Origin: Gemmatimonadota bacterium
GTDB taxonomy: Bacteria > Gemmatimonadota > Gemmatimonadetes > Palauibacterales > Palauibacteraceae
Length of the DNA stretch: 61,986 nt
Direction of reading: 5' to 3'
Assembly (NCBI GenBank): GCA_039588275.1
Contig: JBDHAC010000015.1
Span: forward strand, 1-61,986
Below, in pieces: positions 6,001-12,000 of the stretch. Position 1 is the first letter of the stretch; each line of letters starts with the position of its first letter. A program made the position numbers.

Positions 6001-9000
6001 TCCGCCGCGTCGGACCCGACGCACATCTTCGCCAAGTGCCGCGCGTTCATGCGCGCGCGGGAAGTGCGCGAGCTCGGGCTGTACCCCTACTTCATGCCGA
6101 TCGAGGAATCACACGACACCTACGTGATGATCGGGGGCGAGAAGAAGATCATGGTCGGCTCCAACAACTACATGGGGTTGACGCACGATCCTCGCATCCT
6201 GGAGGCGTCGAAGAAGGCGATCGACAGGTACGGGAGCGGCAACACCGGCAGCCGGTTCCTGAACGGCAATCTGGATCTGCACGATCGGTTGGAGGACGAG
6301 CTCGCGGCGTTCGTCGGGATGGAGGCCGGACTGGTCTTCAGCACCGGATACCAGACGAACCTCGGGACCCTGGGAGCCCTGATCGGGCGCAACGATAGCG
6401 TCTACGTCGACAAGCTGGACCATGCCAGCATCCAGGACGGAGTGCGTCTGGGGTTCGGCCGGGTGCACCGGTTCAATCACGGCGACTACGACGGTCTCCG
6501 GCGCATGATGCAGGCGGACAGGCCCGGCCGGGGCAAGATGATCGCGGTCGATGGCGTGTACAGCATGGAGGGCGACATCGCGAACCTCCCCGAGCTCGTG
6601 AAGCTCAAGGACGAATTCGGGGCCGCGCTGCTGATCGATGATGCGCACGCGATGGGCGTAATCGGACCGACGGGCGCCGGAACGGCCGAGCATTGGGGCC
6701 TGACCGATCGCACGGACCTCATCCTGGGGACGTTCAGCAAGTCGTTCGCTTCGATCGGGGGATTCTGCGCGGGCGAGGCGGAGGTGATCGATTATCTTCG
6801 CAACAACGCCCGCGCCCTGATCTTCAGCGCCAGCATGCCACCCGCCGCCGTGGCCACCGTCCTGACGGCGCTCGAGATCATCAAGAGCGAGCCGGAGCGA
6901 CGCGAGCGGCTGTGGAAGAACACCCACAAGATGATGGAGGGTTTTCGATCGATCGGGTTCGACATCGGACCGACCGAGACGCCCATCGTGCCGATCCTGG
7001 TCGGCCCGATGGAGAAGACTTTCCGGTTCTGGAGAGCGCTGTTCGATGCCGGAATCTTCACCAATCCCGTCATCCCCCCTGCGGTCCCCGAAGGGAGCTG
7101 CCGCCTACGCACCAGCTACATGGCGACTCACACGGATGAGCAGCTCGATTTCGTGTTGGACACGGTCGAGCGATTCGCAAAACAGCTCGACATCATCTAG
7201 CGGCCGGTGAGGGCCGCCCACCTGACCGTGACCGCAGCCCGACGCTCTCTCGTTCGCTCTATCTCGCGCTCGACGTCTCACCGTCCGTGATGAGCACCGC
7301 GGACCTCCCCGTCCGGGTCGTGCCGGTCGACAGTCGTGCGCAGCTGAAGGCGTTCATCGAGCTGCCGTGGTCCATCTATCGAGATGACCCGAACTGGGTG
7401 CCGCCCCTGAAGAGCGACGTTCGGACGGCGTTCGACCCTGAGAAGCACCCGTTCCATCAGCATTCCGAGGCACAGCCCTTCCTCGCCCTCAGGGGCGAGC
7501 GCCCGGTAGGGCGGATCTGCGCGATTCGAAACCGGAACCACGAGGCATTCCACGAGGAGCCGACCGGATTCTTCGGGTGGTTCGAAGGCATCGAGGATCC
7601 TCGCGTCTCGGCGGCTCTATTCGATCGAGTCTCGGAATGGCTTCGCGAGCGCGGGCTCACGACCATGCGAGGGCCGACGAGCTTCTCGACCAACGAAACG
7701 ACCGGTTTCTTCCTGGACGGGGACGACGGTCCGCCCGTCTTGATGATGGCGTATAACCCGCGCTACTACCCCGGCCTGGTCGAGGAGTACGGGTTCGAGA
7801 AGGCGATGGACCTGTTTGCGTACCAGCTGCAGATGTTCGAGCTGCCCGCGCCGCTCGCGCGGGCCGCGGCCGCGATCGAACGGCGCCTGGGGGTGCGCAT
7901 CCGGAAAATCCGCATGTCCGACTTCGAATCAGAGCTGGCCACGGTCCGGCGTTTGTACAACCTGGCCTGGGAGAAGAACTGGGGCTTCGTGCCGATGACG
8001 GATGCCGAGTTCGATTTCATGGCGTCGGAGCTGAAGCCGATCATCAACCCCAACCTGGTTCTCTTCGCCGAGGACGCCGCTGGTGAGCCGATCGGCTTCT
8101 GCCTCGGTCTGCCGGACTTCAATCAAGTCCTGATTCGCATGAACGGTCGGCTGTTCCCGTTCGGCGTCTTCAAGGCGCTCTGGTATCGCCGCGGCGTGAA
8201 GTTCATGCGGGTGCCGTTGCTGGGTGTGGTGCCCGCGTACCAGGGGAAAGGAGTCGACGTGCTCCTCTACGGCGGCATCATTCGCGAGGGCACGGCCGCC
8301 GGGTTCTGCAACGCCGAGCAGTCTTGGATCCTGGAGACGAACGAAAAGATGAACGCGATCATGACGACGCGGCTCGGGGCTCGTGTATACCGCCGATACC
8401 GAGTCTACGACTGCCCGCTCTAGCTCCGTCCCGTCCTCGGATAATGCCCACCGCAAAACAACTTTACCCCACCGCTTTACCGACCGAGCCGCCGGACGGG
8501 TCAGGGTGGGAGGGGCCGTGGTGACGACAGGACGGGCCCTCTGAGCGCGCGCACGCTCCTGACCGGGGCCACCGGGTTTCTCGGAGGACACATCGCGGTC
8601 GCTCTCGCGCGAGGGGGTGCGCCGGTACGGTGCGCCGTCCGGAGCACGAGCGACACCGGCTGGATCGATCCCCTGGGCGTCGAGAAGGTCGAACTGGATC
8701 TCCGACGGCCCGCGGGGTCCGCGGCCGAAGCGTTGCGGGGGATCGAGACGGTCGTGCACTGCGGCGGGGTGACGGCGGTCCGACGCGAGGCCGACTTCCA
8801 CGCGGTGAATACCGAAGGTACCGAGCGGCTCGCGCGGTCGGCCGCGGAAGCCGGCGTGCGCAGACTCGTGTTCATCAGCAGCCTGGCCGCGCGAGGCCCC
8901 GACGGACACGAGGGCCCGGTCAGCGCCTATGGACGCAGCAAGCGGGACGCCGAGGAGCGACTTCTGGCGCTTGCAGATCGACTGGAAGTCGTGATTCTGA

Positions 9001-12000
9001 GACCGGGCGGGGTATACGGCCCTCGGGACAGGGACCTGCTGCCGATGTTTGGGATGGCAAAGCGAGGGTTCGTGATCGGTCCGCGCGCCGACGTGAAGTT
9101 GCAGCCTGTGTTCGTCGAGGATGTTGCCGAGGCGGTCGTGCGGGCCGTGAGCTGCGACCCCGCACCTGGCCCGTTGCCGCTCGCCGAAACCGCGACCTAC
9201 GGGTGGAAGGAAGTCGCCCGCAGCCTGGCCGAGGGTCTCGAGCGACCGGTCAAGATGATCCGGCTGCCGTTCGCGGTCTTCTGGACCGGCGGCCTCCTGG
9301 GGGAGCTGAACGGGCGCCTCACCCGCAAGCCGCCACTCATGGACCGGCGTCGCGCCCGCGACTTCTCCAGCTATTCCTGGACGTGCGACCCCGCCCGCAC
9401 CGAGACCGCACTCGACTGGACGGCCCGAGTCACGTTGCCGGAAGGATTGAAGCGAACGGCGCGCTGGTACAGGGAGAGCGGTTGGCTATGAGGGTGCAGA
9501 GAGCCGACGCCGGATACCGCGCGGAGGTCCAATACGAGATGGCCACGGGATTACTGGCCATCGATCGAGTGTTCCTGCTCTATCTCGGTCTGACCGGAGT
9601 CCTTGCCGTGCTCGGGGGCGGAGTCCTCGGGTTCTCCCTGGCGGCCGCACACGCGGTCGCGATGCTGGCGGTCCGCCGCCTGGGCCGCCGCCCGCTCCCC
9701 CGCAACGCGGGCTGGCGCTGGCTCCGGCTGGTGTATCCGGTCGCGGCCACCCCGTTCCTGCTCTACCCGGAACTCCGATTCCTCAACCGAGTCATCACCG
9801 ACCGCCTGTTCGACGGTATGGTTCAGGGCTGGGAGCAGGCGCTTTTCGGCTCGCAGCTCAGCATGACCTTCCAAGAGTGGCTCCCCGACTTCACGCTCTC
9901 GGAGCTCCTGCACCTCGGCTATGTGTCGTACTACGCCCTGGTGCCGATCGCGCTGGTCGGCGTGTACGTCACGCGCGGTGATGCCGCGCTGCACCGCGCC
10001 GCGTTCGCGACGGCCGTCGCGTTTCTGTTCTCGTACCTGATCTTCACGGTCCTTCCCGTCGCCGGCCCCCGGTACGACTTTCCGCCGATCGGGGGCGAGG
10101 TATCCGGTGGCGCGTTCTATCAGATCGTGCACACGATCCTCGAGACCGGGTCGTCGAGAGGTACGGCGTTCCCCAGTTCGCACATCGCAGCGTCCGGCGT
10201 CGCCGTGCTGGCCGCGGGCCGCGAGGATCGCCGGTGGTTGTTGACCCTGATGCTCCCGCAGATCACCCTGGCGCTCGGGACCGTGTACGGCCGATTCCAT
10301 TACGGCGTGGACGCCATCGCAGGCGTGGCGCTAATGGTGGCGATCTGGCTCGCTGCCCCCCGCCTCGCAGGCTTGTTTGGCAGGCAACCCGATCAGTCGC
10401 TCGGGTATCAAAGGAGTGACTTGAAGCAGCTCTAGAGGAGCGGCGTGGAAGAAAAGGAACTTCTGGAGCGCGCCAGAGCCGGGGATCGGCGCGCGATGGG
10501 TGAGTTGTATGAAACCCATGCGCGGCGTGTGTATACGGTCGTCCGTCGGCTGGTCGGTGATGACCACTTGGCCGAGGATCTGGCGCAGGAGGCTTGGGTG
10601 CGCGCGTTCGAGAAGCTCCACCTCTTCCGGGGTGAGGCAGCGTTCGGGACGTGGATCTACCGCCTCGCCACCAACGTGGCGCTGAACCGTCTCCGCCGCT
10701 CCTCGAAACGGGAGGGGGTGGAAGCCGCCGCGGAGCTACCGAGGGTCGCGAAGGCGCCCGATGAGGCCGTCGTGAACCGGCGGGTCCTCGCCGTGGCGCT
10801 GGACCAGCTACCACCGGGGTACCGGCAGGTCCTGGTCTTGCACGATATCGAGGGCTGGACCCACGAGGAGATCGCGACGAGCCTGAATTGCTCCGCCGGG
10901 ACCTCGAAGTCGCAGCTCCATAAAGCGCGCGCGCGCATGCGGAATCTGATCGCCCCGTTGGCGGATTCCGAGAGCGCCAGCGGTGAGGCCCGAGTTTGAA
11001 CGGCGGGCTCGACGAGACACGACGTTGACGGCATTGAGGACGATGCGAGGAAAGTACCGACATGGCTGAGCACCTGACGCTCGAACGGATCTCCGCCCTC
11101 CTGGATGAACCTTGGGTGGACCTGGACGCGGAGGCGCACCTCGAGAGGTGCGGGTCCTGCCGCGTGGAGTACGAGCGACTGAGCCGCACGCGAATGGCGA
11201 TCTCGGCGCTCGGCGAGCTCGATCCGCCCGCCGGGGAATGGGCGGCGATCGAGGCGCGGCTCGATGCGAGCCTCAGAGAGGACCGCTCGGTCGTGCCACT
11301 TCGAAATCGAGCTGCGGGGAAGCTGCTCCGGAGCCCCGCACTTCAGGCGGCTGCCGCATTGACCTTGTTCGCGGGAGGTGTCTTGGCCGGGCTCCAATTC
11401 ACCGGCTCCGGACCCACGGCGGATGCGCCGACGACGGCGGCTGCCGTCTCGAACGATGCTCGCGGGGAGCTGCCGGTAGCGCTTCCGGCCTCCAATGGCG
11501 AAGCGGCGTATCTGAACGCCGTGGCCGAGATGGAGACCCTGGGATTGCCGCTGCGTCGGGCGAGTCTGTCGCGCCCGGACGGCTCGTTGGACCCGATCGC
11601 GACCGCAGAGTTGATCCGGAGGTTGGACGCGGCGATCGAGGCTTCCCGCGAGGCCGTGATGCGCTCGCCCGAGAACCCGCTGGCGAGCGCGACCCTGTTC
11701 CAACTCGTGGACTATCGGAGCGAGCTGGCGAGCCGCCTGGATCAATCGGCGCACCTGACGCGAGCCGAGGCCTGGTGAGCGCGCCGTGGAGAGCAAGCGC
11801 TCGGCCGGTGCAGACATAGATTTTCTGAGGTGATGATAGGCTGTTCATGATGAAGAGGATGCAAACATCGATGGACGCGCGGATGCGACGCGCGGCCGGG
11901 AGAAGCGGGGCGCTGTGTACGGTGCTGGCGCTTCTCGTCGCGGCGCCGCTCGGTGCGCAGAACGTTCAGACGCCCCGCCCCCCGGCTCCACCGGGGTGGA

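Follow-up and report, generated by a model that had tools for sequence, protein, structure and literature searches.

In this Gemmatimonadota genome, a conserved operon appears to make dihydroceramide and to add a phosphate head group to it, most probably phosphoinositol, and the product of an unlinked gene resembling the eukaryotic desaturase DES1 would, in a minority of lineages, oxidise the long-chain base at carbon 4. We assign this reading, which is drawn from sequence and predicted structure, a probability of roughly 60%. The core pathway is a known and widely predicted one; what we describe is a variant of it with two orphan enzymes.

The ceramide operon

The window, that is, the whole stretch of 61,986 nucleotides that was analysed, comes from contig C15 of genome G000, which holds the ceramide locus. 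Four intact open reading frames lie there on the + strand, followed by a flanking gene:

5941..7200, + strand: spt, predicted serine palmitoyltransferase (start GTG 5941 or ACG 6019; stop 7200; ATG 6049 internal)
7287..8423, + strand: bcerS-like, predicted GNAT-fold N-acyltransferase, 378 aa (weak Acetyltransf_1 match, GNAT clusters, homologs beside spt/cerR)
8541..9491, + strand: cerR-like, predicted NAD(P)-dependent reductase (Epimerase match, NDUFA9-type chains, apparent CTG start)
9488..10435, + strand: predicted Aur1/IPC-synthase-like membrane phosphotransferase, PAP2_3 (PF14378, fold, triad)
10445..10999, + strand: ECF sigma factor, flank (Sigma70_r2 and r4_2)

The genome-wide survey's note had placed an operon spt-bcerS-cerR-PAP2 at 6049..10435. 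Its four intact genes stand, but the start of spt does not: ATG 6049 is internal, and its use would remove the conserved HxFxKC beginning that is present in the Spt of relatives. The cerR-like gene has no ATG, GTG or TTG start; its apparent start is CTG 8541, and the same place reads GTG in G001 and CTG in G002. The ATG of the fourth gene overlaps the cerR stop, with an alternative start at ATG 9539. The ECF sigma factor, which begins 9 bases past the last operon stop, is a flank gene with no assigned part in the lipid pathway. Gene order is collinear in all 12 loci compared, with all four genes visible in 6.

Judged by its sequence, Spt very probably condenses serine with an acyl donor. Its best PDB match is the serine palmitoyltransferase 3a2b (E 4.5e-131), ahead of the best KBL/BioF match (E 1.2e-83), cysteate acyltransferase (E 8.9e-70) and HemA. 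It passes no cut-off in the NCBIfam profile comparison, where the best of all models is SerpalmtaseCFB, built for another phylum than Gemmatimonadota, at 531 bits and below its cut-off of 640. Thirty residues past the PLP lysine, at the position of SulA Lys281, the protein has Ala rather than Lys, which is the serine-type Spt state; the same Ala is present in 11 of the 11 Spt sequences read from the order.

The second protein matches Acetyltransf_1 at 20 bits, just below the cut-off of 20.7; it falls with GNAT clusters of the ESM Atlas at 0.98, and its homologs adjoin spt or cerR in other phyla. The third matches Epimerase (E 1.2e-24) and has NDUFA9-type chains among its best PDB matches, CerR being described as NDUFA9-like in PMC11087976. 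A GNAT acyltransferase and an NDUFA9-like reductase are clustered with spt, the arrangement by which the pathway is recognised, and the operon likely makes ceramide or dihydroceramide by the known bacterial route. The GNAT protein would N-acylate the Spt product and the NDUFA9-like protein would reduce the 3-keto group, two steps suggested by family and gene order.

The bCerS family occurs in 157 of 251 phylum genomes, including 112 of the 113 in family f3. A long spt-level DNA match is present in 40 of 41 relatives, and the remaining one, G015, has a match of only 33 bases. The survey's claim that ceramide synthesis is a core trait is thus well supported, except that the trait is phylum-wide and does not belong to this order alone. 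A bacterial ceramide pathway has already been predicted in about 40 phyla, according to PMC11334938. No report of Gemmatimonadota sphingolipids was found in the literature searched.

The DES1-like desaturase

The desaturase, the ceramidase and the GT21 reported by the survey outside the window are all at the places it gave, all on the minus strand. The desaturase lies on another contig than the operon, without lipid neighbours. It matches Lipid_DES at 32.6 bits (cut-off 23), carries an FA_desaturase domain as well, has His boxes at residues 87, 122 and 257, and is 35-41% identical to 14 named eukaryotic DES-family proteins over about 310 residues. A quick tree, midpoint-rooted and built with no outgroup, places it in a large bacterial branch (SH-aLRT 100) apart from named eukaryotic DES1, and not inside the eukaryotic DES1 clade. 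No solved relative was found, nor any tested bacterial DES1-like enzyme in the literature searched.

The survey's count of the desaturase in 6 of 41 relatives was borne out. Across the phylum, 16 of 251 genomes carry the gene, and 16 of these 16 have bCerS. The co-occurrence is not independent, however, because 15 of the carriers belong to the one family in which bCerS is found in 112 of 113 genomes. Among Bacteroidota, the co-occurrence shows no enrichment (26/30 vs 226/301, p 0.18).

Gene context was compared over a wider set of loci. Of 80 genome loci, one has the desaturase near spt, bcerS or cerR; none of 80 metagenome loci and none of 10 further regions does, and no recurring neighbour gene was found across the loci examined. 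Members of the family are, however, fused to GT21 (P0349) and to a fatty-acid hydroxylase (P0246), and lie beside ceramide-type clusters in L079 and in L261, the latter chosen after its coordinates had been seen. Through these fusions and the two clusters the family is linked to lipids with an N-acyl long-chain base, whether ceramides or sulfonolipids. An Spt-level or sulfonolipid-type condensing enzyme is present in 9 of 10 desaturase carriers examined, and the sulfonolipid type in 7 of 7 carriers without an Spt-level match.

The protein, then, probably acts on an N-acyl long-chain base, and as a di-iron enzyme it would oxidise carbon 4 of that base in a minority of lineages; that it does so as a 4,5-desaturase we put at slightly under even odds. 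The delta-4 desaturation of ceramide proposed by the survey is plausible, with the qualification that the gene is unlinked, that its branch is bacterial, and that relatives occur in sulfonolipid-type genomes.

The enzyme could instead be a C4-hydroxylase, or bifunctional, and give phytoceramide rather than sphingosine-type ceramide. The same family contains both the desaturase DEGS1 and DEGS2, associated with phytoceramide (PMC11765627), some homologs carry a 4-desaturase/C4-monooxygenase annotation, and the query does not group with the named enzymes of eukaryotes. Most named relatives, on the other hand, are annotated as delta-4 desaturases, and no result of the analysis favours hydroxylation, which we consider unlikely. 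Just as unlikely is action on a non-sphingoid lipid, unrelated to the operon. Such a role would suit a solitary gene of patchy occurrence, of which G001 has a second, divergent copy adjoining a luciferase-like monooxygenase; it fits poorly with the Lipid_DES score, with the fusions and ceramide-type clusters, with the condensing enzymes of the carriers, and with the two ordinary acyl desaturases that the genome encodes separately.

The fourth gene and the probable head group

The survey had labelled the fourth gene simply PAP2. The protein does match PF14378 (PAP2_3, E 5.6e-14), but the plain label is not upheld, since the best-matching folds are IPC synthases, the triad has Aur1 spacing, and phosphatase motifs are absent. 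The closest folds to its predicted model (pLDDT 90) are the IPC synthase 9vj4 and Aur1 9ivc. Aur1 aligns with Z 17.8 and rmsd 4.7 over 272 residues, N-terminal helices included, at a sequence identity of only 16-20%. Foldseek places two IPC synthases at ranks 1 and 2, with E about 1e-3 (not below 0.001), and the next PAP2 phosphatase at E 0.25. Residues S230, H232, H271 and D275 are invariant in 50 homologs and are spaced as S253, H255, H294 and D298 of Aur1. The family most often matched in NCBIfam is phosphoinositol-dihydroceramide synthase (33 of 50 members).

The Aur1-like family is present in 134 of 251 phylum genomes, comprising 134 of the 157 that are bCerS-positive and 0 of the 94 that are bCerS-negative. 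In 114 of the 126 genomes with both places listed, it follows bcerS on the downstream side within 1.5 kb. It is a distant subfamily travelling with the ceramide genes. We have good confidence that the fourth protein passes a phosphate head group to ceramide as Aur1 does: H271 would form a phospho-histidine from a glycerophospholipid, the head group would move to the ceramide hydroxyl, and diacylglycerol would be released.

A PIP-synthase-like gene and ino1 are located on contig C40, and for this reason inositol-phosphoceramide is the likely product. The ino1 gene occurs in 40 of 41 relatives, and in 9 of 10 loci its neighbour is the PIP-synthase-like gene. The chances are about even that the donor is phosphatidylinositol or its phosphate, supplied through this gene pair. 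An Aur1 homolog, BT_1522, makes PI-dihydroceramide (PMC9246714, PMC8791184).

Transfer of phosphoethanolamine or phosphoglycerol to ceramide instead, giving a product that is not an inositol lipid, would be in keeping with the distance from the BT_1522 NCBIfam equivalog (11.3 bits, cut-off 480; best member E 0.0019), with a fold match to a sphingomyelin-synthase-related protein (Z 10.7), and with three further CDP-alcohol phosphotransferases in the genome. The closest Bacteroidota homologs, moreover, adjoin bcerS or cerR-like genes and not inositol genes; in 0 of 30 Bacteroidota homolog loci did a stretch of about 1.5 kb around the gene contain ino1 or PIP synthase. We nonetheless find this distinctly unlikely, as IPC synthases come first in both fold searches and almost the whole order carries the PIP-synthase-like/ino1 pair. 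It is improbable that the protein is a lipid phosphatase acting on ceramide-phosphate, PIP or a carrier lipid. The H-H-D triad is common to Aur1 and PAP2 phosphatases alike, LpxE (Z 15.2 over 163 residues), G6PC1 (14.0) and PgpB (13.6) are fold matches, 13 of 50 members weakly match undecaprenyl-diphosphatase models, and a search of this genome, which is 86% complete, found no PgpA that could dephosphorylate PIP; but the phosphatases align over only 163-170 residues, and the protein has neither KxxxxxxRP (C1) nor SRxxxxxHxxxD (C3), which we take to be the PAP2 phosphatase motifs.

Ceramidase, GT21 and comparison with known systems

The survey had also joined ceramide turnover and glucosylation to the operon in one system. 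The ceramidase and GT21, however, follow neither operon nor desaturase, and both score far under NCBIfam cut-offs, so this claim finds no support. The ceramidase matches Ceramidase_alk (E 3.9e-56), and its H137, H139, R203/R205, H260, E514 and Y550, presumably metal-site and catalytic residues, align with solved neutral ceramidases (PDB 4wgk and 2zws, the latter, we assume, the Pseudomonas aeruginosa enzyme). It reaches 94 against the equivalog cut-off of 1200, and occurs in 17 of 41 relatives and in 2 of 6 desaturase carriers, both of this genus. A signal-like hydrophobic stretch at its N-terminus suggests export. Bacterial members of the neutral ceramidase family have long been known, and this is therefore not eukaryote-only chemistry. 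The GT21 (domain E 1.4e-19; 5 of 41 relatives) is unlinked to the ceramide genes, is 23% identical to the GT21 part of the GT21-DES fusion, and has HpnI as its best NCBIfam match (109 vs cut-off 310). It lacks RxxRW, the aligned place reading LWRRW; we take (Q/R)xxRW to be the ceramide glucosyltransferase motif. Desaturase and GT21 do occur together in three genomes, all three of the genus, a GT21-DES fusion exists in a Deltaproteobacteria MAG, and the ceramidase keeps its aligned motifs, but given these scores and distributions, and a GT21 in G015 where the operon match is missing, it is quite improbable that all four belong to a single eukaryote-like pathway of synthesis and turnover whose product is unsaturated glucosylceramide.

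According to a review (PMC10191378), what bacteria make is dihydroceramide, as opposed to the ceramide of eukaryotes. This view would have to be revised if a bacterial relative of DES1 proved to work, and the origin of the eukaryotic enzyme would be seen in a new light. A further-reaching proposal, which we regard as doubtful, is that these bacteria build inositol-phosphoceramide with a genuine sphingosine (4E) base. The Aur1-like family would then be a bacterial subfamily of IPC synthases spread across the phylum, and the DES1-like protein would be the delta-4 desaturase so far missing from bacteria, one of a large sister branch of human DEGS1 with both ceramides and sulfonolipids as substrates. 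If true, this would contradict the view that bacterial ceramides are dihydroceramides only, make sphingosine-type lipids less reliable as markers of eukaryotes, and suggest that the DES1 family arose in bacteria. Without proof for the Aur1-like and DES1-like enzymes, the finding is a range extension of a known pathway; it predicts the membrane-lipid head group and backbone of a common, little-cultured phylum, and names two enzymes open to direct test.

Compared with the neutral ceramidase family, the Gemmatimonadota protein shares the domain and the aligned metal-site motifs, but is far under the equivalog cut-off and its gene is unlinked. The Spt/bCerS/CerR pathway of Caulobacter crescentus, compared at the level of families, has three matching, clustered families, including an Spt with the serine-type Ala and an NDUFA9-like reductase; the Gemmatimonadota operon differs in its Aur1-like fourth gene and in lacking genes for an acyl carrier or an acyl-CoA synthetase. 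Its reductase starts at the Rossmann motif with no leader, whereas Caulobacter CerR is reported to be periplasmic (PMC11087976, PMC11334938). With BT_1522 and yeast Aur1 (PMC9246714, PMC8791184, PMC13133130) the fourth protein shares the predicted fold and the H-H-D triad spacing, and its genome also has PIP-synthase-like and ino1 genes; in contrast, BT_1522 sits in an inositol operon and the Gemmatimonadota gene with ceramide genes, as a distant subfamily in a genome where PgpA was not found. Finally, the desaturase resembles DES1/DEGS1 and DEGS2 (PF08557 and PF00487) in Lipid_DES, three His boxes, sequence identity and a membrane di-iron desaturase fold, and differs from the eukaryotic enzymes in that the named members of its branch are all bacterial, some of them in sulfonolipid-type genomes.

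The predicted ceramide operon and its distribution

All four genes of the operon described in the genome-wide survey's note are present and intact on the plus strand of the window contig, C15, which belongs to a 4.1 Mb assembly of 103 contigs that is 86% complete. The names carried by its homologs put the genome in Gemmatimonadota.

Stop at 7200, + strand: alpha-oxoamine synthase (spt), intact
7287-8423, + strand: GNAT-like protein of 378 residues (bcerS-like), intact
8541-9491, + strand: NAD-dependent epimerase-type reductase (cerR-like), intact
9488-10435, + strand: PAP2_3 membrane protein (fourth gene), its ATG overlapping the reductase stop, intact

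Two starts have to be revised. The ATG at 6049, from which the note had read spt, is internal to that gene, and the candidates are GTG 5941 or ACG 6019. The reductase appears to start at a CTG (8541-8543); the corresponding codon is CTG in one related genome (G002) and GTG in another (G001). We found no sigma-70 promoter or terminator above chance between 5700 and 11200. Upstream of spt (3495-5756) lies a gene whose product, of exported type, combines Ig-like repeats with an M8 peptidase domain resembling leishmanolysin, and 9 bases after the operon (10445-12992) there follow genes for an ECF sigma factor, an anti-sigma-like protein and a double-PDZ protein, through which a link of the operon to envelope stress is possible.

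Among solved structures, Spt is best matched by serine palmitoyltransferase (E 4.5e-131, versus 1.2e-83 for the best KBL/BioF), and its NCBIfam score, 531, lies below the cut-off of 640. It carries Ala where sulfonolipid enzymes carry Lys281, as do all ten of the relatives read; PMC9304779 describes this as the single clear active-site difference. The second protein is GNAT-like, and the third shares with CerR the likeness to NDUFA9 that is stated for that enzyme in PMC11087976. Long spt matches occur in 40 of 41 relatives, and gene order is collinear in 12/12 loci, six of which are long enough to hold all four genes. In a sample of 251 genomes from the phylum (in which our tallies for bCerS, the fourth-gene family and the desaturase include the unpublished genomes G094, G131 and G215, on which no conclusion rests by itself), bCerS homologs are found in 157. 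They are present in 15/16 genomes of the window's family and 112/113 of a second family, f3, and in 7/53 and 8/37 of two others. Thus, the predicted ceramide trait is phylum-wide, yet patchy by family. Since LpxC is also encoded, sphingolipids need not replace lipid A.

The sole other oxoamine synthase of the genome, a KBL-like gene on contig C27 (17866-18950), matches in two frames, and is therefore frameshifted in this assembly. Elsewhere in the window (39787-46056, minus strand) there is a gene cluster for fatty-acid modification, with a flavin oxidoreductase, a DUF1365 protein, two cyclopropane-synthase-type methyltransferases, a DUF1295 protein and an acyl desaturase, which resembles the clusters for methyl or furan fatty acids.

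The fourth gene and a predicted head group

We built a structure model of the fourth protein from 50 homologs (pLDDT 90). A Foldseek search with this model returns two inositol-phosphorylceramide (IPC) synthase entries, 9vj4 and Aur1 9ivc, as its top hits, weakly (E about 1e-3). VIA-align against 48,161 chains places Aur1 first (Z 17.8, rmsd 4.7, 272 residues aligned), ahead of LpxE (Z 15.2 over 163); by sequence, the protein matches no solved structure. Residues S230, H232, H271 and D275 are invariant across the 50 homologs, and their spacing equals that of S253, H255, H294 and D298 in Aur1 (PMC13133130). Phosphatases have the same H-H-D triad as Aur1, according to that paper; the phosphatase motifs KxxxxxxRP and SRxxxxxHxxxD are absent here. 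Most members of the family (33/50) match the NCBIfam model for phosphoinositol-dihydroceramide synthase, very weakly.

The distribution of this family lies within that of bCerS. It occurs in 134 of the 251 phylum genomes, all of them among the 157 that are bCerS-positive, and in none of the 94 that are negative. Of the 126 genomes for which the positions of both genes are listed, 114 have the fourth gene at most 1.5 kb downstream of bcerS; this count omits the last eight listed places, all second copies, and kin in it are not independent. Among Bacteroidota the family is matched in 35/151 genomes. Where the neighbourhood was read, to roughly 1.5 kb in 30 loci, bcerS adjoins in one and cerR in two, with inositol genes in none. 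The model and these patterns suggest that the operon contains an Aur1-like subfamily, a candidate transferase.

A PIP-synthase-like gene stands directly before ino1 on contig C40 (39008-41150; 9009-11151 of locus L123). The two are adjacent in nine of ten loci, and ino1 is found in 40/41 relatives; from the conservation of this pair across the order, inositol lipids would be predicted for the lineage. In Bacteroides, formation of PI-dihydroceramide depends on the Aur1 homolog BT_1522 (PMC9246714 and PMC8791184). Taken together, the Aur1-like fold and triad, the link with bcerS, the PIP-synthase-like and ino1 genes and the BT_1522 precedent make inositol-phosphoceramide the best single prediction for the product. 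Searches of the genome, at its 86% completeness, gave no fatty-acid hydroxylase, squalene-hopene cyclase or PgpA, and the result for PgpA counts in part against an inositol route.

The DES1-like desaturase outside the operon

The genes that the note had placed on other contigs are where it located them: the desaturase on C48, a ceramidase homolog on C1 and a GT21 glycosyltransferase on C5. Three His boxes accompany the Lipid_DES domain of the desaturase, which we too count in 6/41 relatives. The assignment of the other two genes to the ceramide pathway is not supported. In the ceramidase homolog the aligned motifs of the metal site are conserved, and the protein looks exported; it occurs in 17/41 relatives and in only two of the six desaturase carriers. 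The GT21, 23% identical to a GT21 that is fused with a desaturase, occurs in 5/41 relatives, including one without an operon match (G015), and no lipid genes were recognised among its neighbours' translations read by eye.

Against 14 named eukaryotic proteins of its family, the desaturase shows 35-41% identity. By sequence it matches no solved structure, a fold search with its model returns general membrane desaturase/AlkB folds only, and it may be a desaturase or a C4-hydroxylase. Bacteria commonly encode such proteins: of 8,000 candidates scored, at least 6,547 reach E 1e-30 (some possibly non-bacterial), an estimated 2,600 or so stretches occur in the genome collection, and the 80 loci kept include Bacteroidota, Ignavibacteria, Acidobacteriota and Planctomycetota. 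Carriers number 30/301 in Bacteroidota and 16/251 in the Gemmatimonadota sample, where all 16 have bCerS and 15 come from one family. In a quick, midpoint-rooted tree of 83 rows, the query falls in a Gemmatimonadota-only group of eight (SH-aLRT 96). A branch of SH-aLRT 100, with unnamed rows on both sides, separates the query's side, whose named rows are all bacterial, from the other, where all 14 of the named eukaryotes fall together with a single Deltaproteobacteria protein. On this placement we reject a recent transfer from eukaryotes; it points to a bacterial DES1 branch as a candidate enzyme outside the operon. A second, divergent copy in G001 (C68; L102:1600-3702) sits between two other genes, one for a luciferase-like monooxygenase, which precedes it, and one for a large Ser/Thr kinase, which follows it. 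Tandem pairs about 50% identical to the query (L034:8950-10933 and L226:1220-3200) are possibly a desaturase with a hydroxylase.

An N-acyl long-chain base is the candidate substrate, on three kinds of sequence evidence. First, DES1 is fused to GT21 in a Deltaproteobacteria MAG (P0349/P0439) and to a fatty-acid hydroxylase in P0246; a word search for longer fused desaturases gave five proteins, all eukaryotic. Second, in a Gemmatimonas MAG (L079:5974-16964) a DES1-like gene flanks a cluster of cerR, a fatty-acyl-AMP ligase-ACP-oxoamine synthase fusion, bcerS and fabF, and in a Bacteroidota genome (G548; L261:4750-19584, chosen once its coordinates had been seen) a distance of 8 kb separates the desaturase from spt, within a cluster that also contains cerR, bcerS, ino1 and a CDP-alcohol transferase. 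Third, among ten desaturase carriers whose bCerS match is weak or absent, two have an Spt-level match, seven have no Spt match above 37% and all seven carry a sulfonolipid-type enzyme with Lys at the diagnostic position, and one has no match.

The L079 fusion has 1155 residues and Val at that position; its cluster also holds an LPG-synthase-like membrane protein and two paralogous unknown genes on the opposite strand, the DES1-like gene being convergent. The L261 cluster further includes a nucleotidyltransferase, an SDR, two fabF-like genes, a GT4 and a class V aminotransferase. In L252:10134-12731 (G021), a DES1-like gene is convergent with a GT1-type glycosyltransferase.

Operon linkage of the desaturase is rare: ceramide genes are near it in 1/80 loci, 0/80 short metagenome loci and 0/10 regions, and it is mostly solitary. 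Co-occurrence with bCerS is uninformative in Bacteroidota, where 286/301 genomes have a bCerS-like gene; at a hand-counted E of 1e-65, 26/30 carriers compare with 226/301 overall (p 0.18), which is no enrichment. Among 50 desaturase genomes, drawn from the 80 loci with non-Gemmatimonadota chosen, 47 have a bCerS-like gene, 26 at E under 1e-65. The bCerS-like proteins of Bacteroidota fall into two score classes, the weaker in genomes with a sulfonolipid-type condensing enzyme; its members are candidate capnine N-acyltransferases.

Comparison with known systems

The full reading, in which the Aur1-like protein and a putative bacterial delta-4 desaturase would together yield inositol-phosphoceramide on a sphingosine (4E) backbone, is tentative, and we put its probability at roughly three in ten. 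There are reports of 4-unsaturated long-chain bases in the ceramides of myxobacteria and in flavocristamide A, a sulfonolipid. If these reports hold, the chemistry is known in bacteria and its enzyme is still to be assigned; our full-text search found no paper on an assayed bacterial DES1 homolog.

The same search found no paper on sphingolipids of Gemmatimonadota, and it did not extend to the supplement of PMC11334938 or to the 2022 pathway paper, which may already list the phylum. PMC11334938 raises the potential bacterial sphingolipid producers from 9 to 40 phyla, and its main text does not name Gemmatimonadota. Compared with these systems, what we describe is a known pathway in a phylum for which we found no report, together with a putative Aur1-like subfamily within the operon and a predicted bacterial DES1 branch outside it.
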